This document shows positions 8,635 to 36,668 of a stretch of 64,000 nucleotides of DNA, piece after piece (the stretch's first letter is position 1; the number at the start of each line of letters is the position of its first letter). Below the pieces are notes generated by a model. That model was not told the origin of the DNA, made no database searches, and worked only from the letters and a program-made list of their open reading frames with translations. The translations under genes were made by a program, and so were the position numbers. The stretch comes from Nitrospirota bacterium (GTDB lineage: Bacteria > Nitrospirota > Thermodesulfovibrionia > Thermodesulfovibrionales > JdFR-85): contig JAADGG010000025.1 in the NCBI GenBank assembly GCA_013152485.1, positions 50-64,049 of the forward strand, written 5' to 3'.

Positions 8635-11121
8635 TCACCTCAACTTGAGAAATCTGAGTCTGTTTGCATTGCTGACGACGGTCACCGAACTCATGGCCAT
8701 GGCGGCACCTGCAAGGATCGGGTTCATGGTGATGCCCCATATGGGATAGAGGATTCCGGCTGCTACGGGGACGAGAGCCGTGTTGTAGAAGAAGGCGCCG
8801 AACAGGTTCTCCCTGACGTTCTTCATCGTGGCCTTCGAGATGCTTATCGCCGCCTTTATTCCGAGCAGGGATCCCTTGATCAGTGTTATGTCGGACGCCT
8901 CTATCGCAACGTCCGTGCCGGTACCGATCGCCATTCCGACATCCGCGCGGGCGAGTGCCGGGGCGTCGTTTATCCCGTCGCCCACGAATGCGACCTTCCT
9001 GCCCTCGAGCTGCAGTTTCCGCACCTCGCGGGCCTTGTCTTCGGGCAGTACCTCTGCAAGCACCCTGCCTATGCCGACCCTCTTTGCTATGGCCTCGGCA
9101 GTACGCCTGTTGTCGCCGGTTATCATCACGACGTCCACGCCGAGGCCCTTCAGGCCCTGTATCGCCTCGATGGAATCATCCTTGAGAGGGTCCGAGACGG
9201 CTATGACGCCGGCGGCCCTGCCGTCGACGGCGACGAAGATGGGGGTCTTTCCTTCATCGGCGAGCATGTGGGAATCCTTTTCGAATATGTCGAGGTCGGC
9301 GCCTATCCGCTCCATGAGCTTCCTGTTGCCGAGGCTGATCCTCTTTCCATCCACGACACCCTCCACCCCGTATCCGGGGATCGCATTGAAGTCGTCCGGG
9401 TCCGGAGGGGTGATCTCCCTGGTTCCGGCACCTTGCAGTATCGCCTCTGCCAGAGGATGCTCGGAATTCTTCTCGAGGGCTGCGGCAAACCTGACGATCT
9501 CCTTCTCATCGCCTTCAGGGGCGACTATGACATCCGTCAGCGCAGGCTTTCCCACGGTAATGGTGCCTGTTTTGTCGAGCACGACGGTGTCGAGTGCGGA
9601 GGCGACCTGTATGGCCTCCCCGTTTCTTATCAGGATGCCGTTCTCCGCGGCCTTTCCGACGCCGATCATCAGCGAGGTCGGTGTTGCGAGCCCGAGGGCG
9701 CACGGACATGCAACGATCAGCGTGGTCACTGCACCGAGCAGGGCGAGTATGATGCGGGGTTCGGGGCCGAGGTCGTACCAGAGGACGAAGCTCGACACGG
9801 CGATGACCATTACGGCGGGAACGAAGTATCCGCTGACGGTGTCGGCCAGTTTCTGTATCGGGGCCTTTGAGCCCTGGGCCTCCTGGACCATCCTGATGAT
9901 CTGGGCAAGTGCCGTGTCCTTTCCGACCTTGGTGGCCCTGAACCTGAAGGCTCCCGTCTTGTTGATCGTTCCTCCTATCACCTCGTCGCCCTCCTGCTTC
10001 TCTGCAGGAAGGGGCTCGCCCGTCAGCATGGACTCGTCCACGCTCGACCGTCCCTCGACGAGCACGCCGTCGACCGGGATCTTCTCCCCGGGACGTACAA
10101 CGACCGTATCACCGACCAGTACCTCCTCTATCGGTATGTCGATCTCGGCACCTTCCCTTATGACACGGGCGGTCTTGGCCTGCAGCCCCATCAGCTTCTT
10201 TATGGCCTCCGACGTCCTGCCCTTGGCCCTCAGCTCCAGTGCCTGGCCGAGCACCACGAGGGCGATGACCACGGAGACCACGTCGAAATAGGGCTCCCGC
10301 GCGTTCTCCGGAAACAGCTCCGGAAAGAGGACCACAACGGTCGAGAAGAGCCATGCCATGCCCGTGCCGAGGGCTATCAGCGTGTTCATGTCGGCGGCCC
10401 GGTGCCTGAAGGCAGCGACCGCGCCCTTGAAGAAGCTGCTCCCTGAATATACAAGAGCAGGCACGGTGAGAAGACTCGCGCCCATCCACAGCAGTCTCAG
10501 GGTGTCCATGTCCAGGTCCTTGAGCACGGGGAAGAACGTAGGATAGCTCACCACTATGACGGGCAGGGATATAAGGGCGGCAACCGTGAACCGCCTCAGA
10601 AGGGCCTTGTATTCCTTTTCCTTCGCATCCTCTTCCCTGGCCGGTGAGGGTTCGGTCTCCGCCCTGTAGCCTGAGGACCCTATAACCTTCTTCAACGACT
10701 CGATGGTCGTCATCGACGGGAGAAACTCCACGGTTGCGCTTTCGGAACCCAGGTTGACCTCGGCGCGTATGACGCCCGGAGAGCCCTTCAGTGCGTCCTC
10801 GACCTTACTGACACACGAGGCACACGTCATTCCCCTGATCTTGAGCGTGACCTTTTCAGAGCCGACGTCATAGCCGCTGTCCTTGATGACCTTTATTATC
10901 TGTCCCATCCCGATCAGGCCGGGATCGTACGAGACAAAGGCCTTTTGAGAGGCGAAGTTGATGTTCGCCTCCCTGATTCCTTCCAGGGATGCGAGAGCCT
11001 TTTCTATCGTCGCCGTACAGGAGGCGCAGGTCATTCCGGTTACGGGCAGCTCTACCCTCACCGCTCCCCTGTGCTCTCCGCTCACCCCGGTCGTAGCCGA
11101 GGGAATGATTGCGTGTTTCAT
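8635..11121 (-). CDS. copA: Copper-translocating P1B-type ATPase
   Basis: 828-aa ORF. Two N-terminal HMA domains (GMTCASC twice), CPC in the TM helix, DKTGT phosphorylation motif, GDGINDAP hinge. Confidence 0.95.
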
Positions 11122-24243: not shown

Positions 24244-24729
24244 CTAAATAAACAGCGTTATGTCCGCATCGAGTGCGAAGTTGAGGAACTCTGCAGCCCC
24301 CGCGACCTCGACTCCCTCGACGAGGTCGTCCTTGCTGACGCCGGTCATCTCGAGCGTGGGGGTGCAGGCTATCATCCTGACGCCTATGTCCCTGCAAGCA
24401 TCAACGAGCTCGGGTATGCTCGGCCAGTTTATCTTCTTTATCATCCCTTTCATCATGGTCGTGCCGATCGAGGTCATGCCCGGCAGCATGCCGAGTATGT
24501 TGGGGACAGGCACGGGTGAAGGCATCGCAGGGTTTGCTATGGGTGCCACCTGCAGCCTGCCGTTCTTCTTCCTGTTCACTATGTCGACGCCGTAGAGTGT
24601 GAAGAATATCGCGGTCTCCACGTCCATGGCAGCTGCGGTCGATGCGAGTATGAGGGGCGGATAGGCCATGTCCATCGTCCCTTTACTGGCGATTATCGCC
24701 ATCCTCTTCTTTTTTTTCTCTTCAGACAT
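24244..24729 (-). CDS. DsrE/DsrF-like family protein
   Basis: 161-aa ORF. Starts MAIIASKGTMDMAYPPLILASTAAAMD...FFTLYG and has a conserved Cys in MIACTPT. Matches the pattern of DsrE/F-like sulfur-relay-fold proteins. Confidence 0.65.
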   Translation of the reverse strand: MSEEKKKKRMAIIASKGTMDMAYPPLILASTAAAMDVETAIFFTLYGVDIVNRKKNGRLQVAPIANPAMPSPVPVPNILGMLPGMTSIGTTMMKGMIKKINWPSIPELVDACRDIGVRMIACTPTLEMTGVSKDDLVEGVEVAGAAEFLNFALDADITLFI

Positions 24730-24837
24730 GATCTGCCTCCTTGACAGTGTTTGTTCGTCCTGTAACGCAGGCCTCGGCCGCCCTCAGAGGGCGCGCTCGA
24801 GCCGCGGACGGGCGGCCCCTTTCGTGGCCACAATTCA

Positions 24838-24866
24838 ATTATACTACGGACGGGTTTAAATGTCAA
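24838..24866 (-). promoter_or_regulatory. Consensus sigma70 promoter (TTGACA-17-TATAAT) upstream of the DsrE-like gene
   Basis: The minus strand reads TTGACA (24866-24861), a 17-nt spacer, then TATAAT (24843-24838). This leaves a leader of about 100 nt that is GC-rich and self-complementary (ggccgccc...gggcggcc) before ATG 24729. Confidence 0.55.
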
Positions 24867-24908
24867 TAGAATTCTTAATTAAGAAACTGTGCAATAGTGG
24901 CGGGTCTT

Positions 24909-25730
24909 CTACATCTCGAAGAAACCCTTTATGAAGGGCGTCTCCTTTTTCACTATCGAGCCGATATGCTCCACGTCTCCTTCAGTCAGGCCGCTCTTTC
25001 GCAGCAGGCGCTCCTTCTCTTCGTTCCAGGCCCCGTCGGCCTCGTTCCTCGGGGCGATGACCGCGGATAGGGCCTCGGCAAGATGCACCGTGACGGCGAT
25101 CCCCCGGTGTTTTTCACACCCCTCGAGGCAGTGGTGGTACCTTACGGCAAAGACTATCTCTTCGGGGAAGAGGGAGGACTCCAGAAACCATCCTCCGGCT
25201 GTGCCGTGGTCGGTGTTGAAGAGTTCCTTTTCCTTCTCCGTCACCGCTTCGTCGAACATCACGGCCTTGTACTCAGGAGCATAGAGGGTATAGAAGATGA
25301 CGCGTCCGATGTCGTGCAGTAGTCCGCCGAGGAAGCATACCCCGCCCGATGTGACCGGAACCTTGTCGCACAGGAGTCCCGCGATCAGTCCGACCTCATA
25401 GCTGTGGGCCCAGAACTCCTTCATACTCTTTGCCTCGCCCCTGCCGAGGAGCTCGAAGACCGATATGCTTATGGCGATGCTCCTGACGAGGTCGTAACCC
25501 AGGAGCAGCACGGCCTGCTCGAGGTTGTTCACGAGGCCGGAGTGCCAGAAGTACGGGGCATTCGCTATGGCCACGACCCTCTCGGCGAGACTCTGGTCGT
25601 GCTCGATTATCTCGGACAGTTCGACGAACGAAGAGTTTTCGTCGTCAATGGTCTCCAGGAGCCGCTTCATCACGACCGGGATGGTCGACAGGGTCTTCAG
25701 CCGGCCTATATCCCTTCTAACGTCCCTCAC
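24909..25730 (-). CDS. HDOD domain-containing signalling protein
   Basis: 273-aa ORF. The domain pattern includes LP..P.V..RLL..., GLLHDIG and RYHH. It overlaps the upstream gene by 4 nt. Confidence 0.75.
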   Translation of the reverse strand: MRDVRRDIGRLKTLSTIPVVMKRLLETIDDENSSFVELSEIIEHDQSLAERVVAIANAPYFWHSGLVNNLEQAVLLLGYDLVRSIAISISVFELLGRGEAKSMKEFWAHSYEVGLIAGLLCDKVPVTSGGVCFLGGLLHDIGRVIFYTLYAPEYKAVMFDEAVTEKEKELFNTDHGTAGGWFLESSLFPEEIVFAVRYHHCLEGCEKHRGIAVTVHLAEALSAVIAPRNEADGAWNEEKERLLRKSGLTEGDVEHIGSIVKKETPFIKGFFEM

Positions 25731-26653
25731 TCTTCGTCTCCGGGAAAACTCTCGAACAGGGTTTTGAACCTTTCGATGCTCACGGGTTTTTCGAGTATCC
25801 TGATGTCTCCCCTCTTCTTGACCCGTTCGACCTCGAACGACAGCGTGTCCCCGGTCAGAAGCCAGAGCCGCTTCTTGTCGATGAATCTTTCGGCCTTCTC
25901 GATGAACGTTATACCGTCCATCTCGGGCATCCTGAGGTCGACGAGAACGAAATCGAACTCTTCCTCGGCCAGGACCTCGAGGGCCTTCAGCGGTGAGGAC
26001 ATCACGCGGGCCTCATGTCCCAGGAGCGTGAGGAACTCCTTGAAGACGTCGACGACTATTGCGTCGTCATCGATGACCAGTATCCTGAACGACCTGCTCT
26101 CCTTTCTTTCCGGTCCGGGCTTGAGGAGCGGCATCTCGATGCGGAACTTCCTGCCCTTCTTCGTGTGGCTCAAGAACATCTCCCCGCCGTGGATCTTGAT
26201 GATCCTGTTGGCCAGCGGTGTGCCGAGCCCTCTCATCTTTCCCGGTATGTCGTGTGACCTGAATATATCGACCGATACATCCTGTGATTCATTTATGGAG
26301 TCCCTGAGCCTCAGCACCGCCTTACCATCTTCCTGTGCCGTTGAGACGACCAGACGCCTCTCGCCCTCGTGTCCCTCGAATGACTTTATGATGCCGAGCA
26401 GCAGATGGAGCAGCGCCTGCAGCAGGAGGTGAAAATCACCCTTGACGAAAAGCGGTTCCTTGGTGAGGTTTACTGTTATCGGGATGTTCCTCACCCTCAT
26501 CTGATACTCGAGCAGCGATACAGCCTTCCTGACCAGACCGTTGAGGTCGAGCGGAGCGGCCCCTGCGGGCTCCTCCTTTTGAGTGTATATCTTTAAGGGG
26601 TTTTTATTGCTTTGCTCCATTATCCATCCATGACGAACGGTTACCGATACCAT
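25727..26653 (-). CDS. Degenerate HATPase_c domain fused to a response-regulator receiver (no HisKA/H-box)
   Basis: 308-aa ORF. The ATPase-like half has the N-box positions as LLHLLLGIIKS (no Asn), no DxGxG and a partial G2 (GLGTPLA). The receiver half is intact (ILVIDDD...VLVDLRMPEMDG...K). No phosphoacceptor His domain lies upstream. Confidence 0.7.
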   Translation of the reverse strand: MVSVTVRHGWIMEQSNKNPLKIYTQKEEPAGAAPLDLNGLVRKAVSLLEYQMRVRNIPITVNLTKEPLFVKGDFHLLLQALLHLLLGIIKSFEGHEGERRLVVSTAQEDGKAVLRLRDSINESQDVSVDIFRSHDIPGKMRGLGTPLANRIIKIHGGEMFLSHTKKGRKFRIEMPLLKPGPERKESRSFRILVIDDDAIVVDVFKEFLTLLGHEARVMSSPLKALEVLAEEEFDFVLVDLRMPEMDGITFIEKAERFIDKKRLWLLTGDTLSFEVERVKKRGDIRILEKPVSIERFKTLFESFPGDEE

Positions 26654-26786
26654 TTTAGCAGAAATTAAAAAAAATTAAAATTTGCAATGCACGGGAACCC
26701 CCCGTGTTAAAGTTTTCCGCCGTCGGGCCGATATGAGGCTGAAGGGACGGCTTCCGCCGCACTGCCGAGAGACAGGAGAAACTCCC

Positions 26787-27254
26787 ATGAAAATACATGC
26801 CGGCAATATGACAATTAAGCTGCTCGCAGCCTTTACCGTGTTCCTCTCGTGCGCGGTCCTGCCGTCCCGCGCGGTCGGCATCGGACCGCACAACGACATA
26901 ATGCTGAACACCAGCATACGCTGCTCCGACTGTCACGAGACCGTCTCTCTCAACGAGTTGTCCCCTGAGTTCAGCGACTCCACCGACAGGGTCTGTCTGC
27001 GGTGCCATCGGAGGGACGGGGACGCGCCCCTTTCCCATCCCGTGGGGATAAAGGTGAAGTCCGCCTTTCCTGCGGACGTTCCCTTGAGCAGCGACGGCAG
27101 GCTCATGTGCATCACGTGCCATACCTTTCACACATCCTCCTATCTCCCGGTCCTCAAGAGGAAGGTCTATATAAGGAGGGGGATTCTGGAGAGAGACTTC
27201 TGTCAGAGGTGCCACGGTGAGGACGTGCGCGGCAAAACGGTCGTCTCGTACTGA
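26787..27254 (+). CDS. Periplasmic tetraheme c-type cytochrome
   Basis: Start at ATG 26787 (RBS aggaga 26774-26779) gives the signal peptide MKIHAGNMTIKLLAAFTVFLSCAVLPSRAVG. There are four CxxCH motifs (CSDCH, CLRCH, CITCH, CQRCH). Confidence 0.8.
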   Translation: MKIHAGNMTIKLLAAFTVFLSCAVLPSRAVGIGPHNDIMLNTSIRCSDCHETVSLNELSPEFSDSTDRVCLRCHRRDGDAPLSHPVGIKVKSAFPADVPLSSDGRLMCITCHTFHTSSYLPVLKRKVYIRRGILERDFCQRCHGEDVRGKTVVSY

Positions 27255-27515: not shown

Positions 27516-27591
27516 GGGCGGTTAGCTCAGTCGGGAGAGCGCCAGAATCGCACTCTGGAGGTCGGGGGTTCGACTCCCCTACCGTCCACCA
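27516..27591 (+). tRNA. tRNA-Ala (anticodon CGC), CCA encoded
   Basis: Hand-folded cloverleaf. The acceptor stem gggcggt/accgtcc contains the G3:U70 alanine identity pair. D arm gctc/gagc, anticodon stem ccaga/tctgg with loop atCGCac, T arm ggggg ttcgact cccct, then ACCA. Confidence 0.9.
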
Positions 27592-27614: not shown

Positions 27615-28592
27615 TCAGCAGTAATCCTCGTAACTTCCAAGCGAGGAGAACTCATACAGCGTCGACATCGCCCTGCTCTCGGTGGTAATGCCGGACTCCT
27701 CCAGTATGGCTACGGGGTTCAGCCCCCCGACTATCACCATGCCGGCGCGGTCCAGGCCCACGGGCATCTCGTAAAGGGGGCTGTTCGGTTCACCGATGCA
27801 GAGTATGCCCCCTATGCCTTTGGCCCGCAGCCTCTCTGCAAGGTCCCTCGCGCTTCCGTGGCAGACGACCGGGATCTCCCGGAAACTCGCCAGCACCCTG
27901 CCCGTTCCGTGGCGGACGGCCCCGCCGACATCCGTCATCTTGCCCCGTATGAAGACCTCCAGCGGATCGAGAGAGGAGCCTTCGTAGCTTATCAGCGCAA
28001 TGAACCGAGTAGGTCTCCCTCCTTCGATCTCGAGCACTCCGCCGAATCTCGAGGCCACGGGAATGCCTGCCTTGAGGAAGACGCCGTTTATGGTGACGCT
28101 GCAGACCGTTCCCAACGCTACTTTGCCCTCGGGCACGACGATATCGCCGAGCCGTCCGCCTTCACTGACCACCGCAAGCCGGTCACTCATCACATAGGGG
28201 GATCTGAAGACCGGGCGCATGGTCCTGAGGGCCTTCTTGAGGTCTTTCTCCGCTATATAGGATACGTTCAGTATCACGTCTCCCTTCAGTGTGTCGAGGT
28301 CGAGGTTCGTGAGGTAGGAAAGGGTGTCGATCCGGCTGATGACAAACCCGACCTTCTCGGAAACAAGGGCCTTGGCGAGCTCTTCCCGCCCCTTTTCCGT
28401 TATCTTTCTCCCCTCCTTGCCGAAGGGCTCCGTAAGGCCCATCTCATCGAGGATCTTGAGGTGATACCTCACGGTCCTCTCCGAAAGGGTCACCCCGTGG
28501 GTCTTCAGCCGGCGCGCTATCTCTCGTGAGCCGGTTATCGCGTCCTGATAACCCTCGAGTACCCTCAGTATGGCGATCAGTGTCCTGTTCAT
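27615..28592 (-). CDS. nrpR: NrpR-family nitrogen regulatory repressor (HTH plus one DUF128/NRD domain)
   Basis: Starts MNRTLIAILRVLEGYQDAITGSREIARRLKTHGVTLSERTVRYHLKILDEMGLTE (winged HTH), followed by an NrpR regulatory domain. I use start ATG 28592; the track ORF extends 36 aa into the glnA 3' region. Confidence 0.7.
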   Translation of the reverse strand: MNRTLIAILRVLEGYQDAITGSREIARRLKTHGVTLSERTVRYHLKILDEMGLTEPFGKEGRKITEKGREELAKALVSEKVGFVISRIDTLSYLTNLDLDTLKGDVILNVSYIAEKDLKKALRTMRPVFRSPYVMSDRLAVVSEGGRLGDIVVPEGKVALGTVCSVTINGVFLKAGIPVASRFGGVLEIEGGRPTRFIALISYEGSSLDPLEVFIRGKMTDVGGAVRHGTGRVLASFREIPVVCHGSARDLAERLRAKGIGGILCIGEPNSPLYEMPVGLDRAGMVIVGGLNPVAILEESGITTESRAMSTLYEFSSLGSYEDYC

Positions 28593-28636
28593 GAAAAGCC
28601 TCCTGAAAACTGTATTGATTGAAGCCGGCGCAGAGA

Positions 28637-29965
28637 CTACAGCATCGGCAGATATGTCTCTATCTCGTAGGGGAAGACCCTCGTGCGGTAGTCGTCCCAC
28701 TCTATCTTCTTGCTAAGGATCAGCTCGTTGAACACGTGCTCTCCGAGCGTCTCCCTCAGAAGCCCGCTCCCCTCGGCATGCTCGATCGCCTCTATCAGGC
28801 TGCCGGGAAGCTGATCGATCCCAAGCCCGCGCCTCTCGGTGTCGGAGAGGTGGTATACGTCGGTCTCCGCAGGTTCGCTCAGGGAGTATCCCTGCTCTAT
28901 CCCCCTGAGGCCCGCGTTCAGCATGCAGGCGAAGGCGAGGTATGGATTGCATGCGGGGTCGGGAGAGCGGAGCTCGATCCTCGTGGCCCCTTCCTTGCCG
29001 GGCTTGTAGAGCGGCACCCGCACGAGTGCCGAGCGGTTTCTCCTTGCCCAGCATATGTACACAGGGGCCTCGAACCCCGGCACCAGCCTCTTGTAGGAGT
29101 TGACCCACTGGTTCAGCACGAGGGTGAATTCCTTCACATGCCTGAGCAGGCCTGCAACGTAGTGCTTGGCGGTCTCGGAGAGGTAGTAGCGGTCGTTCGG
29201 ATCGAAGAAGGCGTTCTCTTCCCCCCGGAAGAGGGACTGGTGCGTATGCATGCCGCTTCCGTTCTGGCCGAATATCGGCTTCGGCATGAACGTGGCATAA
29301 ACGCCGTACTTCCTTGCTATCTCCTTGACCGTCACCCTGTAGGTCATGACCGTGTCTGCCATGGTGAGGGCGTCGGTGTACCTGAGGTCTATCTCGTGCT
29401 GCGAGTGGGCCACTTCGTGATGTGAATACTCGACCCGTATGTCCATCGCCTCGAGAGCCAGAATGGTCTCCCTCCTCAGGTCCTCGGCCGCGTCCATCGG
29501 ATAGTCGAAGTACCCGCCCTCGTCGAGTATCTCGGGCGACTTTTCGCTCCGGAAATAGAAGAACTCCAGCTCGGGTCCGACATGGAACGTATAGCCCTTT
29601 TCCCGTGCCTTCTCGAGGTTTCTTCTCAGGACGTATCTCGGGTCCCCCTTGTAAGGGGTGCCGTCGGGCTCGTAGATGTCGCAGAACATCCGGGCAACGG
29701 CCTTCTCCTTCGGCCTCCAGGGCAGCAGGACGAACGTTGCCGGATCCGGACGAGCGATCATGTCGCTTTCATCTATGCGGGCAAACCCCTTTATGGAGGA
29801 GCCGTCGAAGCCCATGCCTTCCTCGAACGCGTACTCGAGCTCCTCCACGGGCATTGCAAAGCTCTTGAGCATCCCGTGGATATCGGAAAACCATAGCCTT
29901 ACGAACTTCACGTTGTGCTTCTTCACAAGGTCCAATACATCCTTGCCGTCACGCGGTCTCTCCAT
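28637..29965 (-). CDS. glnA: Glutamine synthetase, type I (short, GSI-alpha-like, 442 aa)
   Basis: Has FSDIHG, GFDGSS, GPELEFF, MPKPIFGQNGSGMHTHQSL and NSYKRLVPGFEAP. The length and the lack of the ~25-aa GSI-beta insertion suggest the alpha subtype. Confidence 0.9.
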   Translation of the reverse strand: MERPRDGKDVLDLVKKHNVKFVRLWFSDIHGMLKSFAMPVEELEYAFEEGMGFDGSSIKGFARIDESDMIARPDPATFVLLPWRPKEKAVARMFCDIYEPDGTPYKGDPRYVLRRNLEKAREKGYTFHVGPELEFFYFRSEKSPEILDEGGYFDYPMDAAEDLRRETILALEAMDIRVEYSHHEVAHSQHEIDLRYTDALTMADTVMTYRVTVKEIARKYGVYATFMPKPIFGQNGSGMHTHQSLFRGEENAFFDPNDRYYLSETAKHYVAGLLRHVKEFTLVLNQWVNSYKRLVPGFEAPVYICWARRNRSALVRVPLYKPGKEGATRIELRSPDPACNPYLAFACMLNAGLRGIEQGYSLSEPAETDVYHLSDTERRGLGIDQLPGSLIEAIEHAEGSGLLRETLGEHVFNELILSKKIEWDDYRTRVFPYEIETYLPML

Positions 29966-30052
29966 TGCCTGACCTCCTTGATTTGTGATGAGTCACTCGT
30001 TCGCGTCGCTTCCGGCGACCGTTTGCCGTGGTTGTAATAATAACCTAACCGG

Positions 30053-32875
30053 TCAGCAGCGTCCCGTAATGTCCAGCACGGAGCTCCTGAGCCCTTCGAG
30101 GTGTCCGAGGAACTCTTCCGTGCTGCGGTGTCTCATGAACCTGCCGGCCAGGTCCGTAATCTCCGATCCCTTGACGACCACATGCTCCTCGTTCAATCTC
30201 AGGAAGGTCTCGAGCCTCCTGTAATACGCGTAGGCGTCGAGCAGGGTGTCTCTCTCGGTGGAGCCTATGAGTCCTTTCCCTGCCAGCCTCCTGATCGCGG
30301 CAGAGGTGCACTGGACGAGCAGTTCGGGGTGTTGACGCACATGCTGAAGCTGCAGGAACTGGACGTGGAACTCTATCTCCTCGATACCGCCCGGTCCGAG
30401 CTTGATATCCATTCCTGCCGCCTCCTGTGAGAGCTCGCGCACTATCCGTTCTCTCACGGCGCGTATCTCCTCTCTCTTCACCTCTCTCCCGCGCTGCCTG
30501 ATCACCTCGGCAGCCATCTCCAGGAAGGCCCTGCCAGCCCCGCGGTCCCCTGCCACGGGCCGTGCGCGCAGGAGCGCCTGAAGTTCCCATGGCCGGGCGT
30601 TCTTGAGATAGTAGTTCCTGTAGCCCTGAATGTCCTTCACGAGGGCGCCCTTCGAACCGTCCGGCCTAAGTCTCACATCCACACTGTAGAGCATGCCCTT
30701 GTCAGTGTACGTCGTGAGGGTCTTCACTGCGCTCTCGGCGGCCCTCACTCCTTCCGGTGCATCCGAGAGGAAGATTATGTCGAGGTCCGAGCCGAACGTC
30801 AGCTCCCTTCCACCGAGCTTGCCGAGGCCGATGACGGTCAAACCGCTGTCGCCGCCGGTCCTTTCGATGATCGTCCCGATTACGGCGTCGGCAAGGTGCG
30901 AGACAGACCTCAAGAGGTCCTGTATCGTCAGGACGTCCATGAGGAAGAAGAGGCCGAGGCGGAGTTCTTCCGTCCGCTTGTATTCTCCGACCGCCTCGAG
31001 GTCTCCCCCTCCGAACCGGATGCTCCTGCGGAGCTCCTCCTCCACCCTTCTCTTGGTCTTCCTTATGACCAGTCCCTCGACCAGTCTGTCGAGATAGCTG
31101 TTGTCGCTCAGGAAGACTCTCGACAGGTATGAGCTCAGGGAGAAGAGCTTGACTATGGCCTCGACAAGCCCCTTGTGTTCGGCCACTCCCGTCAGGTAGG
31201 CCTCTTTCTCGCCGAGGACTTCGATGAAGCTCTCGAGCCCCTTGAGCGCCCTGTCAGGGCTCTCTGCGCTGAAGGCCTTCTCCAGAAACTCGGGGACGAC
31301 CCTCCTCAGTATGGCCCGCTCCCTCTGAGTCTTGAAAGTCCTCATCTGGTCCCGCACGTTCTGCAGGTACACGACCGCTGCCTCCGGTTCCTTCACTCCC
31401 CTGAACGAGAGATATCGCCTCAGCTCGTCTTCCGTCAGGTCACCCTCGATCAGTGCAAGCGCCTCGGCATGGAGGTCCTCTTCCGTGCCGAGCAGGGAGT
31501 TGTACATCTTCTTCACCTGCATGCGCCTGAGGCGGAGGTCTGCGAGGAACTCCGCTGCAGAGGAAAAACTCATCGTCCGTGCAAGCACCTCTTTCTCGTG
31601 ACGGGAAGCGGGCAGCCTGTGGGTCTGCAGGTCCTCTTTCATCTGCAGGTAATGCTCCAGCCTCCTCAGGTACAGATAGTTGTCCCACAGCGTGGCGAGG
31701 TCCTCCTGCGGAACCAGGTTCATCCATCTCAGCACCTGTATGGCGTTGAAGAGCCTGTGGGTCCTCAGGGCCCTGTTGTCTCCCCCGTAGATGAGCTGGA
31801 AGGTCTGTACGAAGAACTCTATCTCCCTGATTCCGCCGTAGCCCCGCTTTATGTCATCCCTCGAAAGCGTTGAATCTATCCTCTTCTTGAGTCCACGGAT
31901 CTCCTCTACTTCCGAGAAATCGAGACTCTTTCTCCAGACAAACGGGCTGACCGCCTCCATGAACTTCAGCCCCAGCTCCGTGTCGCCTGCTACCGGCCTC
32001 GCCCTGATGAGCACCATCCGTTCCCACGTACGGCCCCAGGACTCGTAGTATGTCCTGTAGGAATCGAGCGGCATCGTCAGCTCCCCCTTCTGCCCCTGGG
32101 GCCTGAGCCTGAGGTCGACCCTGTATGCGATGCCGTCCTCCGTAGGGAGCGAAAGCATTCTGCTGAGGAGCTCGACGACCCTGCAGTGGAACTCGTGGCT
32201 GCCTATCCTGTTCACCCTTACGCCCGAGGGATTGAGGATTCCCGAGGTCTGTCCGTCTCCGTGACCGTAGACGGCGATTAGGTCGACATCGGAGCTGTAG
32301 TTCAGCTCGGCCCCACCCAGCTTTCCGAGACCCACAACGGTGATCGCCGTCTCCGGAGGATCACCGAACCTGCTGCGGTTGACCCTCAGGGACCACTCGA
32401 GCGAGAGCCCGATCAGTGCCTCTGCAAGCAGGGTCAGCTCGTCCATCGACGAGAGTATGTCGGTCTCGCCGCAGACGTCCCTCAGCGTGATCCTCAGGAG
32501 GTAGCGCTTCTTGAAATCCCGCAGCGCCTTCATCATAGCGGTCAAATCCCCCTGCGCTTCAGGGCCGATCTCCGTCCGTATCCTCTCGAGGAGCAGTTCC
32601 CTTGATACGGGCCTCTTCGTCTCCTTCAGCGCCGAAAGGAGGTCCTCGGGGCTGGACGTGGAGTAGTTTGCGAGAAACTGGCTTACGGCAAAGAGCTTGC
32701 AGACCTCGGCGAGGTATGGAAGGAAAGGGCCCGAAGGGGTGAGCCCGAAGAGCCGCAGGATGTTCCTCTCCGCCCTTTCCGGGTCAGGCGTATCCCGGGA
32801 GATCTCAACGATCCTCTTATGCAATCCTTCATCTACAGACATCGCCTCCCGTCCTCTGCAGTCCTCCGTTGTCAA
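30053..32875 (-). CDS. glnE: Bifunctional glutamine synthetase adenylyltransferase / adenylyl-removing enzyme
   Basis: 940-aa ORF with two nucleotidyltransferase modules (GKLGG.EL.Y.SDVDLI and GKLGGRELTFGSDLDIIF), each followed by a GlnE C-terminal helical domain. Confidence 0.9.
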   Translation of the reverse strand: MTTEDCRGREAMSVDEGLHKRIVEISRDTPDPERAERNILRLFGLTPSGPFLPYLAEVCKLFAVSQFLANYSTSSPEDLLSALKETKRPVSRELLLERIRTEIGPEAQGDLTAMMKALRDFKKRYLLRITLRDVCGETDILSSMDELTLLAEALIGLSLEWSLRVNRSRFGDPPETAITVVGLGKLGGAELNYSSDVDLIAVYGHGDGQTSGILNPSGVRVNRIGSHEFHCRVVELLSRMLSLPTEDGIAYRVDLRLRPQGQKGELTMPLDSYRTYYESWGRTWERMVLIRARPVAGDTELGLKFMEAVSPFVWRKSLDFSEVEEIRGLKKRIDSTLSRDDIKRGYGGIREIEFFVQTFQLIYGGDNRALRTHRLFNAIQVLRWMNLVPQEDLATLWDNYLYLRRLEHYLQMKEDLQTHRLPASRHEKEVLARTMSFSSAAEFLADLRLRRMQVKKMYNSLLGTEEDLHAEALALIEGDLTEDELRRYLSFRGVKEPEAAVVYLQNVRDQMRTFKTQRERAILRRVVPEFLEKAFSAESPDRALKGLESFIEVLGEKEAYLTGVAEHKGLVEAIVKLFSLSSYLSRVFLSDNSYLDRLVEGLVIRKTKRRVEEELRRSIRFGGGDLEAVGEYKRTEELRLGLFFLMDVLTIQDLLRSVSHLADAVIGTIIERTGGDSGLTVIGLGKLGGRELTFGSDLDIIFLSDAPEGVRAAESAVKTLTTYTDKGMLYSVDVRLRPDGSKGALVKDIQGYRNYYLKNARPWELQALLRARPVAGDRGAGRAFLEMAAEVIRQRGREVKREEIRAVRERIVRELSQEAAGMDIKLGPGGIEEIEFHVQFLQLQHVRQHPELLVQCTSAAIRRLAGKGLIGSTERDTLLDAYAYYRRLETFLRLNEEHVVVKGSEITDLAGRFMRHRSTEEFLGHLEGLRSSVLDITGRC

Positions 32876-33020
32876 GGCGCTTCCACGGCGTCCGGTCAGC
32901 CGCCGGTGTCCGCCTGCGTTGAATTTAGACTCCCCTAAATGCTAACATATTCAGTCTTTAATTGATAATCAACACGATTCAAGAGACCCTTCTTGATAGT
33001 GAAGACAAGGAAACCGAGTC

Positions 33021-34271
33021 ATGACAGAAATTTTGCCATTCAGGGGTATCGTCTACGATACCCGCAGTGTCAAGGGCGAAGACGTCGTTGCACCGCCTTA
33101 CGACGTCATAACCCCTGAACTGAAGGAGGAACTCTACTCGAAGAGTCCCTACAACATCGTCAGGATAGACTTCGGAAAGGACCTTCCCGAAGACAGCGAG
33201 ACGGAAAACCGTTACACGAGGGCCGCCAGGCACCTTGACGAGTGGATGAAGGCCGGGATTCTGAAGGAGACGGAGAGGCCGGCGTTCTACCTCTACGAGG
33301 TGACGTACAGTGTCGGAGATGAAAGGAAGGTCATGAGAGGGCTCTTCGGCAGGGTGAGAATAACGGAGCTGTGTGACGGCGTATACCCGCACGAGGCCAC
33401 CCACTCGAAGCCGAAGGCGGACAGGCTTACCCTCATGCATCACTGCAGGGCCAACCTGAGCCCCATCTTCTCCATATACAGCAGTCAGAGGCGGGGCTAT
33501 CTCGGCCTCTTTGAGCGGTACCTTTCAACCCCTCCCTACATGGCGGCCGCTGACCGCACCGGAGCAGAGCACAGAATGTGGATAATAGACGACCATGACG
33601 ACGTCAGGGTGATCGAGGAGGAGCTGAGAGGCTCCCCCATATACATAGCCGACGGGCACCACAGGTACGAAACGGCGCTCGCATACCAGAAGGAGATGAA
33701 GAAGGAGAACCCCGGGCACACGGGCACCGAGCCCTACAATTATGTCATGATGTACCTCGTGAACATCGCCGACGACGGTCTCACGGTACTGCCGACCCAC
33801 AGGCTGGTGAGGGAGCTGGCCGAGGGCGATGCACCGGAACTGCTGAAGCCCCTGGAGCGCTACTTCGAGGTCAGGCCGGTAGATGCCGGCAGGGACATAA
33901 CCGCCGAGATTGCCGCTCGCGAGCACGCCCTCGGAGTTGCCTTGCGCGGGGAGGACAGGAGCTTCATCCTCCTTTACAGGGGCGGGGACCTCTCCGGCGT
34001 GCCCGGGCCGCTGAGAGGGCTTGACGTAACGCTCCTGCATGAATTAATCTTTAAAAAGTTGTATAATGTCCAGGGGGTTGACTATGAAATGGACCCTCGG
34101 GTCTGTCTTTCAAGGGTGCGGGACGGCAGTCATCAGGCGGCCTTCTTCCTGAATCCCACGAGGGTGGAGGATGTGGAGAGAGTGGCGAGTGCCTGTCTGA
34201 GAATGCCACCCAAGTCGACATACTTTTTTCCCAAGATACTTACAGGGTTTGTAATAAACAGGCTGCAGTAG
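33021..34271 (+). CDS. DUF1015 family protein
   Basis: 416-aa ORF. Has PFRGIVYD...VVAPPYDVI, ADGHHRYETAL and LPTHRL, characteristic of DUF1015. Confidence 0.7.
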   Translation: MTEILPFRGIVYDTRSVKGEDVVAPPYDVITPELKEELYSKSPYNIVRIDFGKDLPEDSETENRYTRAARHLDEWMKAGILKETERPAFYLYEVTYSVGDERKVMRGLFGRVRITELCDGVYPHEATHSKPKADRLTLMHHCRANLSPIFSIYSSQRRGYLGLFERYLSTPPYMAAADRTGAEHRMWIIDDHDDVRVIEEELRGSPIYIADGHHRYETALAYQKEMKKENPGHTGTEPYNYVMMYLVNIADDGLTVLPTHRLVRELAEGDAPELLKPLERYFEVRPVDAGRDITAEIAAREHALGVALRGEDRSFILLYRGGDLSGVPGPLRGLDVTLLHELIFKKLYNVQGVDYEMDPRVCLSRVRDGSHQAAFFLNPTRVEDVERVASACLRMPPKSTYFFPKILTGFVINRLQ

Positions 34272-34339
34272 CTGCAGTAAGCGGCGGTCGGCCCTGCCGG
34301 CTGCCTGCCGGAACGCAACAGGAGGCCTTGTCTCCTTAA

Positions 34340-35380
<1,041 letters not shown>

Positions 35381-35432
35381 GTGCTGATTCTCGAAAAAAA
35401 ACATTCTCTGCAGCTGATTACAACGGGAGGCT

Positions 35433-36668
35433 ATGATGTCCACTGAAATTAGTCCCGCCCCTATACGGGACATACTGAACAAGCTCACCATACAGGATTT
35501 CGATCTCAAGGGCAAACGCGTGTTCATACGCGTGGATTTCAACGTCCCCCTTGATGAAAACCTCAACATAACCGACGACCGGCGGATCCGTTCCGCCCTG
35601 GCCACCATCAACTATGCAATCGACGAGGGTGCGAAAGTGATACTCGCCTCGCACCTCGGCAGGCCCAAGGGCAAGGTCGACCCGCGCTACAGCCTCGCCC
35701 CCATTGCAAAGAGGCTCAAGCGGCTCCTCAACAAGGACGTCATCTTCGCCCCTGACTGCATAGGGCCACAGGTCCAGAACATCATCGACAAGATGCAGCC
35801 GGGGGATGTCGTCGTGCTGGAAAACCTGAGGTTTCATCCCGGCGAGGAGAAGAACGACGAAGAGCTTGCAAAGGCCCTTGCCGCCCTTGCGGACTACTAC
35901 GTAAACGACGCCTTCGGGACCGCTCACAGAAACCACGCCTCCATCGTGGGTGTGCCGAAGTTCCTCCCTGCAGCAGCGGGCTTCCTGCTGAAAAAAGAGA
36001 TCGAGTACCTCAAGGGTGTAGTTAACAACCCGGTCAGGCCGTTCGTCGCCATCCTCGGCGGTGCAAAGGTATCCGGAAAGATAGGCGTGCTTGAAAACCT
36101 CGAGTCTAACGTGGACAAGGTGCTGATCGGCGGCGGCATGGCCTTTACGTTCATAAAGGCCATGGGCTACGAGGTCGGGGACTCCCTGGTTGAAGAGGAT
36201 ATGCTCGAGACTGCGCAGAGGATCAGGACGAAGCTGAAAGAGCGGGGGGTGAAGTTCTATCTTCCTGTGGATTGCGTAATCGCGCAGAGACTCGATCCCG
36301 GCGCCGAGACGAAGATAGTCCCCACCCTCGAGATCCCGAAAGGGTGGAAGGCGCTCGACATAGGGCCCGCCACTGCAAAGCTCTTCTCAGAGGCCATCCA
36401 GAACGCGAAGACGATCCTCTGGAACGGTCCCATGGGGGTGTTCGAGATCGACGCCTTCTCCCGCGGCACTTTTGCCGTGGCCCGTGCCATAGCCGACGCC
36501 TACGCCCTCACCATTGTCGGCGGCGGCGACACAGACCTTGCAGTCCACAGGGCGGGTGTTTCCGACAGTATATCCTTCATCTCGACCGGGGGAGGCGCGA
36601 CCCTGCAGCTGCTCGAGGGCAAGGAACTTCCCGGCATTGCTGCTCTCACCGACAAGAAGGTCGACTGA
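35433..36668 (+). CDS. pgk: Phosphoglycerate kinase
   Basis: 411-aa ORF with [15 protein letters not shown] and GGGDT. The second ATG at 35436 has better spacing to the RBS gggagg. Confidence 0.95.

Follow-up and report, generated by a model that had tools for sequence, protein, structure and literature searches.

A conserved glnE-glnA-nrpR cluster of Thermodesulfovibrionia-type Nitrospirota joins a bacterial adenylyltransferase to a methanogen-like glutamine synthetase and an NrpR-type regulator

Three co-directional minus-strand genes, glnE, glnA and nrpR, fill positions 27615-32875 of a 64-kb stretch of DNA (hereafter the window; contig JAADGG010000025.1). The host is a metagenome-assembled genome (MAG) of a Thermodesulfovibrionia-type Nitrospirota bacterium, described as sulfate-reducer-like. 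Our analysis indicated that glnE encodes the bifunctional enzyme that adenylylates and deadenylylates glutamine synthetase (GS), that glnA encodes a GS of the GSI-alpha class, and that nrpR encodes an NrpRI-type regulator. The glnE-glnA(alpha)-nrpR cluster is an uncharacterised hybrid whose components all belong to known families.

The encoded proteins were identical (100%) to NOZ24962.1 (GlnE, read from the ATG at 32842), NOZ24961.1 (GS) and NOZ24960.1 (NrpR); NOZ24960-62 were deposited under a 'Nitrospirae bacterium' MAG. The longest open reading frame of glnE covers 30053..32875 and begins with TTG, and the ATG at 32842, which is preceded by GGGAGG, is the likelier start. For nrpR the open reading frame covers 27615..28700, and the likelier start is the ATG at 28592, giving a protein that begins MNRTL. 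GlnE matched the Pfam families PF03710 and PF08335 (GlnD_UR_UTase) twice each and scored 561.7 bits against the NCBIfam equivalog NF008292 (cutoff 487). Its two tandem nucleotidyltransferase domains each keep an intact G-x-S/G-D-x-D motif (GLGKLGGAELNYSSDVDL, residue 171; GLGKLGGRELTFGSDLDI, residue 672). The GS scored 529.8 bits against the GlnA equivalog TIGR00653 (cutoff 429). In NrpR, a PF08461 winged helix (residues 6-72, 65 bits) is followed by the regulatory domain PF01995 (DUF128; residues 81-318, 284.8 bits, cutoff 25), which is the domain order expected of the family. Its sole solved relative was the NrpR-like protein MJ0159 of Methanocaldococcus jannaschii (3nek; E = 2e-35). A tblastn search of the 64-kb window detected no PII, AmtB or second GS. 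The first-pass annotation of this DNA had named the same three genes, including an NrpR-like protein, and had noted that glnB and amtB are missing from the window; the family-model matches and the tblastn search confirmed this observation.

Table 1. Positions of the cluster genes and of the elements in and around them (window coordinates).
Feature	Position	Strand	Remark
glnE, GS adenylyltransferase/adenylyl-removing enzyme, bifunctional	30053..32842	-	929 aa from ATG
glnA, GSI-alpha glutamine synthetase	28637..29965	-	442 aa; complete methanogen-type 2-oxoglutarate pocket
nrpR, NrpRI-type regulator	27615..28592	-	325 aa; N-terminal winged helix and one NrpR regulatory domain
Tyr371 codon of the alpha GS, aligned with the Escherichia coli Tyr397 adenylylation site	28853..28855	-	from alignment
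glnE-glnA intergenic spacer, 87 bp	29966..30052	-	no predicted terminator or promoter; no Rfam match
glnA-nrpR intergenic spacer, 44 bp	28593..28636	-	Shine-Dalgarno-like AGGAGG; no predicted terminator
Conserved 32-bp block 5' of glnE, ATATGTTAGCATTTAGGGGAGTCTAAATTCAA	32919..32950	-	candidate operator/promoter element
Palindrome ATTTAG-N6-CTAAAT within the block	32923-32940	-	6-bp spacing as in the methanogen operator
tRNA-Ala(CGC)	27516-27591	convergent to cluster	ends the cluster

We next compared the GS with enzymes of both classes. The 15 top PDB matches were all GSI-alpha enzymes (457-535 bits, full length), with Methanosarcina mazei GlnA1 (8s59/8tfb) the best at 535 bits. The beta enzymes of Salmonella/E. 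coli, Mycobacterium tuberculosis and Synechocystis scored no higher than 284 bits, in alignments confined to the C-terminal part. Identity fell from 54% with M. mazei GlnA1 to 41% with the GSI-beta of the lineage itself and 39% with E. coli GlnA. A 30-residue gap opposite E. coli GlnA 137-166 corresponds to the missing beta insertion, and the loop ETDVYHLSDTE shares only its tyrosine with the beta motif. By these alignments the window GS is a GSI-alpha enzyme, and the earlier description of the 442-aa protein as alpha-type without the insertion was correct.

As a second GSI alongside a classical GSI-beta, the 442-aa protein recalls the Actinobacteria, where GlnA2/3/4-type paralogues occur, and it could in principle be a GS-like ligase (a gamma-glutamyl-polyamine or -ethanolamine synthetase) and no true GS. 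A weak match to the gamma-glutamylputrescine synthetase model (299.6 bits) fell far short of its cutoff of 650, whereas the GlnA equivalog model was passed. The protein also resembles the biochemically characterised M. mazei GlnA1 at the identity given above and keeps the 2-oxoglutarate and glutamine-feedback residues of that enzyme. We consider such a ligase function highly improbable.

In M. mazei, the 2-oxoglutarate pocket comprises F24, R26, S38, R87, D170, R172, R173 and S189, and R66 mediates glutamine feedback (PMC11957540). All equivalents in the window GS were identical: F21, R23, S35, R84, D162, R164, R165 and S181, together with R63. Close orthologues likewise had every one of them, and the pocket residues were nearly always identical across the alpha1 family; both the alpha2 and the beta enzymes had substitutions. 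Characterised bacterial GSI-alpha enzymes do not have these residues (PMC10799026). Surveys of the 2-oxoglutarate motif published so far took in Archaea and four Bacillota enzymes, the latter without the motif, and PMC10799026 cautions that the motif alone is no proof of activation. The window GS shares with the Bacillus-type GSI-alpha, which is controlled by GlnR/TnrA, the alpha class, the lack of the insertion and the feedback arginine (R63 in the window, R62 in Bacillus subtilis). Unlike the Bacillus-type enzyme, which has no 2-oxoglutarate-binding residues (PMC10799026), it has all of them. Judged by its pocket residues, the window GS looks to be activated by 2-oxoglutarate in the methanogen manner. 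Such an enzyme would be switched on allosterically by 2-oxoglutarate and inhibited by glutamine feedback, with no covalent modification.

Two further observations concern GS paralogues in other fetched loci (numbered L001 onward). The alpha2 enzymes of nrpR-glnB-glnA loci lack most of the pocket residues (R26->N, S38->E, R87->S/N, D170->T). A metagenomic locus (L098, 6249-9949) carries amtB-glnB followed by two tandem alpha1-type GS genes, whose products share 81% and 79% identity with the window GS.

The cluster is conserved among relatives. L001, L071 and L072/L073 have the same glnE-glnA(alpha)-nrpR order, and in them too the DUF1015-gap-pgk genes diverge upstream. In L078 glnE-glnA(alpha) is accompanied by a co-directional nrpR, and in L074/L075 by a convergent one; L057, L081, L082, L163 and L077 have glnE-glnA(alpha) without an adjoining nrpR, the GS of L077 possibly being truncated, and L162 has glnE alone. 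Besides the window, loci in which an insertion-less GSI adjoins glnE are L001, L071-L075, L078, L081, L082 and L163. The adjacency of glnE and the alpha glnA spans lineages in which GlnE is just 30-42% identical, and the spacer between the two genes is 11-182 bp in relatives. In the window, this spacer has neither a predicted terminator nor a predicted promoter, which fits co-transcription. We therefore regard glnE-glnA(alpha)-nrpR as a conserved and probably co-transcribed cluster, with a putative role in nitrogen control. In L002 (7163-10975), nrpR directly follows glnE after 54 bp that hold no GS gene, and the upstream block is kept. In the closed 2.69-Mb genome CP070788.1 (L077, 12805-13841), the GS 3' of glnE was called at just 346 aa and is perhaps truncated or a pseudogene.

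At E <= 1e-10, the NrpR query retrieved 5,823 protein clusters. The best 120 of these were 65-100% identical, and all that were named came from Nitrospirae, Nitrospirota or Thermodesulfovibrionales. A search of GTDB species representatives yielded 70 confirmed NrpR loci, which were mostly from Nitrospirota, with a few Dehalococcoidia, Spirochaetes and Deltaproteobacteria MAGs and two archaea. PII, GS, GlnE or AmtB was encoded within the fetched flanks in 38 of the 70. The commonest layout was nrpR-glnB, often followed by an alpha2 GS about 50% identical to the window GS. This linkage indicates that NrpR is a standard nitrogen-locus gene in Thermodesulfovibrionia-type Nitrospirota. NrpR had been called uncommon in bacteria, which is right in general and wrong for this group, where it is routine. 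The first-pass annotation had also allowed that the arrangement might prove common and already characterised in the lineage. Common it is, since the gene order is conserved in relatives; as to characterisation, our literature search turned up no publication that deals with NrpR in Nitrospirota or with a glnE-glnA-nrpR arrangement. Among individual loci, L009, L010, L013, L020, L025, L028, L032, L041 and L069 have nrpR (at about 10001-10966), then glnB, then an alpha2 glnA. An Altiarchaeota MAG (L066, 3574-12220) encodes six NrpR paralogues in about 9 kb, 30-35% identical to the query, the last five head to tail.

A classical GSI-beta was found in the same lineage. The GS of L074 (6136-7548; 470 aa) has the beta insertion and the loop KDIYELPPEE (KNLYDLPPEE in E. 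coli). A search with a lineage GSI-beta query, followed by listing of the cluster members, led to NOZ24727.1 (P0393), a 470-aa GSI-beta from a 5,353-bp contig of 'Nitrospirae bacterium' that has the insertion and the loop DKDLYELPPEE. Both proteins thus carry the two GSI-beta marks, the insertion and a D-K-N/D-L/I-Y-D/E-L-P-P-E-E loop. GenBank protein accessions usually run consecutively within one genome submission, and NOZ24727.1 lies 233 accession numbers from the window proteins NOZ24960-62. Similarly, about 1,480 accession numbers separate HEB76502.1, which is near-identical to NOZ24727.1, from the GS (HEB75023.1) and the GlnE (HEB75024.1) of L001, the closest relative. This proximity suggests that NOZ24727.1 and the window cluster probably reside in one MAG.

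In the clade of the window, GSI-beta is encoded within a glnB-amtB-GATase-glnA(beta) cluster. In L074, L078 and L082 the order is GSI-beta, PII on the minus strand, then glnE, the alpha GS and nrpR, and L077 is similar; PII is also divergent to glnE in L081, L162 and L163. The L077 locus contains in addition two amtB-glnK pairs and a 470-aa GSI-beta. These features resemble the enterobacterial PII-GlnE-GSI-beta cascade: the window GlnE contains the two nucleotidyltransferase domains and scores above the cutoff of the E. coli-type equivalog model, the GSI-beta loop of the lineage reads DKDLYELPPEE against DKNLYDLPPEE, and a PII gene lies divergently beside glnE in relatives. Unlike in that cascade, glnE in the window stands apart from GSI-beta and PII and is clustered with the alpha GS and nrpR. 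Upstream of glnB in L158 (5322-5557; also in L159-L161), 5' of the glnB-amtB-GATase-glnA(beta) cluster, we found a sigma-54-like sequence, TGGCACGGTTATTGTA. It is preceded by two tandem perfect palindromes, CCTACAAAATTGTAGG and TACAATTTTGTA, which resemble an NtrC-type activator site. This combination suggests that the GSI-beta module, probably driven by sigma-54 and NtrC, is regulated otherwise than the glnE-glnA(alpha)-nrpR cluster.

We then considered which GS is the substrate of GlnE. The tyrosine of ETDVYHLSD had been said to align with the adenylylation loop, and it does: Tyr371 of the window GS lies opposite E. coli Tyr397. If GlnE adenylylated the adjoining GSI-alpha at Tyr371, one enzyme would be under covalent, allosteric (2-oxoglutarate) and transcriptional (NrpR) control. 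In most of the GlnE loci examined, glnE lies directly 5' of the alpha glnA, at spacers in the range given above; this would agree with such a role, as would the alignment of the tyrosine. However, the loop ETDVYHLSDTE follows the alpha pattern (NVNIFHLSDKE in M. mazei) and is unlike the beta motif DKNLYDLPPEE, and the loops of glnE-linked alpha enzymes (E-x-D-V-Y-H-L-S/T) show that general alpha pattern with no convergence on the beta motif. To place Tyr371 in its family, we aligned 90 alpha-family members (63-94% identity, from genomes and metagenomes, with flanks). Nine of the glnE-adjacent enzymes had tyrosine at this position and one had phenylalanine, compared with 61 and 19, respectively, of those not adjacent to glnE. 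The glnE-adjacent phenylalanine belongs to L140, which has the order GSbeta-GlnE-GSalpha, and M. mazei GlnA1 also has phenylalanine there. Because tyrosine and phenylalanine alternate irrespective of glnE adjacency, Tyr371 is not diagnostic of adenylylation.

The actinobacterial glnA1/glnE/glnA2 region offers a precedent. In M. tuberculosis and Corynebacterium glutamicum, an insertion-less glnA2 lies beside glnE and is co-transcribed with it, and GlnE modifies the GSI-beta, GlnA1 (PMC2667176); adjacency there does not imply a substrate relationship. The likeness is one of layout. In M. tuberculosis (Rv2220-Rv2222c) and C. glutamicum, glnE lies by a GSI paralogue of about 445 aa without the insertion, and in relatives of the window GSI-beta, glnE and the alpha GS share one neighbourhood. 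The two regions differ in that the order is reversed, glnE being 5' of the second GS in the window cluster, in that this second GS is methanogen-like with a 2-oxoglutarate pocket, and in that NrpR takes the place of GlnR/AmtR. A canonical GSI-beta with a DKD(I/L)YELPPEE loop in the lineage, probably in the same MAG, would be a conventional substrate. Our literature search found no paper on GlnE acting on a GSI-alpha. Taken together, we think it improbable that GlnE modifies Tyr371 of the neighbouring enzyme, and its proposed target is the separate GSI-beta.

To look for regulatory sites, we searched for the classical NrpR operator, GGAA-N6-TTCC, as the first-pass annotation had suggested for the regions upstream of glnE and glnA. 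The window contained two matches, against 1.26 expected by chance, and none was upstream of glnE, glnA or nrpR; matches in the other fetched loci were scattered. This operator is thus not found where it was sought, and its count in the window is at chance level. No sigma-54 promoter was found upstream of the three genes either, and Rfam searches of the cluster returned no riboswitch or small RNA, the sole match being the flanking tRNA-Ala.

A different element was conserved 5' of glnE. The 32-bp block was near-invariant in four genomes in which its flanks had diverged, and it kept its position relative to glnE in L002, where other upstream sequence differs. Across about 2 Mb of fetched DNA, its 18-mer ATATGTTAGCATTTAGGG was confined to the region 5' of glnE (window, L002, L071, L072 and L073). 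Both half-sites, ATTTAG and CTAAAT, were perfect in L002, L071 and the window, with a variable spacer between them; the L072 copy had two changes in the right one. Conserved half-sites with a variable spacer are typical of a site bound by a dimeric protein. By inspection, the block contained no TnrA/GlnR box (TGTNA-N7-TNACA), and in this the locus again differs from the Bacillus type; nor did it contain an NtcA box (GTA-N8-TAC) or an actinobacterial GlnR box. We infer from this pattern that the block is possibly an NrpR site. Neither ATATGTTAGCATTTAGGG nor the block was present 5' of the clade's own GSI-beta cluster, which gives no evidence for a shared regulon.

A de novo palindrome search 5' of 63 bacterial nrpR genes revealed no universal operator. 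The sole shared repeat was ATTCC-N9-GGAAT, which occurred within 250 bp 5' of nrpR in six loci (L010, L023, L027, L046, L057 and L069), with 0 occurrences in intragenic controls; it is a possible autoregulatory site in those lineages. In a Spirochaetes MAG (L063, 155-170), TTTAG-N6-CTAAA lies about 100 bp 5' of an nrpR homologue (43% identical); the core is the same as that of the palindrome upstream of the window glnE, which may be coincidence.

The three genes could also be neighbours by descent only, with NrpR acting on targets elsewhere (for example glnB or nif), glnE and glnA(alpha) expressed independently of it, and the block serving a different factor, or the divergently transcribed DUF1015-gap-pgk genes, as promoter or operator. 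The missing classical operator would agree with this, and so would the convergent nrpR of L074 and L075. Moreover, most Nitrospirota nrpR genes head a glnB operon (glnB alone, or glnB then glnA) and do not lie behind glnA, and a weak sigma-70-like match directed toward DUF1015 overlaps the block. On the other hand, L002 lacks the alpha GS, yet its nrpR still adjoins glnE. The fixed position of the block in that locus and the conservation of its half-sites around a variable spacer likewise count against this reading. Shared descent without shared control is a minority possibility that we nevertheless take seriously. Its counterpart, that NrpR represses the operon of methanogen-type GS and GlnE in Thermodesulfovibrionia in a 2-oxoglutarate-responsive manner through a new operator of the ATTTAG-N6-CTAAAT type, is in itself a tentative proposal to which we attach a similarly low likelihood.

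Based on these results, we propose that the organism runs two modules side by side, an archaeal-style 2-oxoglutarate module and a bacterial PII/GlnE/GSI-beta module. In this model, GlnE would adenylylate and deadenylylate the classical GSI-beta encoded elsewhere in the glnB-amtB-GATase-glnA(beta) cluster, and not the neighbouring alpha GS, which would be gated by 2-oxoglutarate. NrpR would be a repressor of nitrogen genes that 2-oxoglutarate releases, possibly including this operon via the palindromic block. We favour this model as a whole, though only by a modest degree of confidence. The nearest known parallel is the methanoarchaeal system of NrpR and a 2-oxoglutarate-activated GSI-alpha (M. 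mazei GlnA1 and the GS of Methanothermococcus thermolithotrophicus). As in NrpRI, the window regulator has a winged helix-turn-helix and one NrpR regulatory domain; the window GS is nearest to M. mazei GlnA1, with an identical pocket and feedback arginine, and nrpR is physically linked to glnA. The system differs from that of methanogens in its bacterial host with sigma-factor-dependent transcription, in having no GGAA-N6-TTCC operator in the cluster, in containing glnE, which methanogens do not have, and in a genome that probably also encodes GSI-beta, PII and AmtB.

The joint control of this alpha GS by GlnE and NrpR that had been envisaged earlier is not supported by these results: the lineage has a GSI-beta with an E. 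coli-like loop, which lies beside glnB and glnE in relatives, the aligned tyrosine is a family-wide Tyr/Phe position, and the canonical NrpR operator is absent upstream. Several observations nevertheless weigh against the two-module model. The adjacency of glnE and glnA(alpha), seen in 12 of about 14 GlnE loci examined, would also fit an enzyme and its substrate, and the tyrosine is kept in every glnE-linked Nitrospirota copy of the alpha GS. No classical operator precedes glnE, glnA or nrpR. Because glnE and the divergent DUF1015-gap-pgk genes share the intergenic region that holds the conserved block, this element could instead act on the latter genes or answer to a different regulator. Accession proximity is the sole basis for placing NOZ24727.1 in the same MAG, and the model as a whole is built from sequence.

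The genes flanking the cluster were named by synteny with L072 and Pfam matches. On one side (24244-27254) lie genes for DsrE-like, HDOD/HD and response-regulator/HATPase proteins and a small multihaem cytochrome; on the other (33021-36668), divergent from glnE, lie those for DUF1015, GAPDH and PGK. None on either side is obviously related to nitrogen.

NrpR and 2-oxoglutarate-activated GS have so far been studied only in methanogens. Here, NrpR and a GS with the 2-oxoglutarate pocket appear to be routine in one bacterial class, beside a classical PII/GlnE/GSI-beta system. The finding argues against taking a neighbouring glnE as a pointer to the substrate of GlnE, an attractive inference that is probably wrong. 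If NrpR does act through the new operator, the adenylylation machinery of the classical GSI-beta would be under archaeal-style transcriptional control; in the extreme version, in which GlnE also AMPylates Tyr371 of the alpha GS, this would be the first covalently regulated GSI-alpha. The cluster opens the question of how an archaeal-type repressor works with a bacterial RNA polymerase, and it offers a natural case of how a cell may split ammonium assimilation between a 2-oxoglutarate-gated GS and an adenylylation-gated GS.

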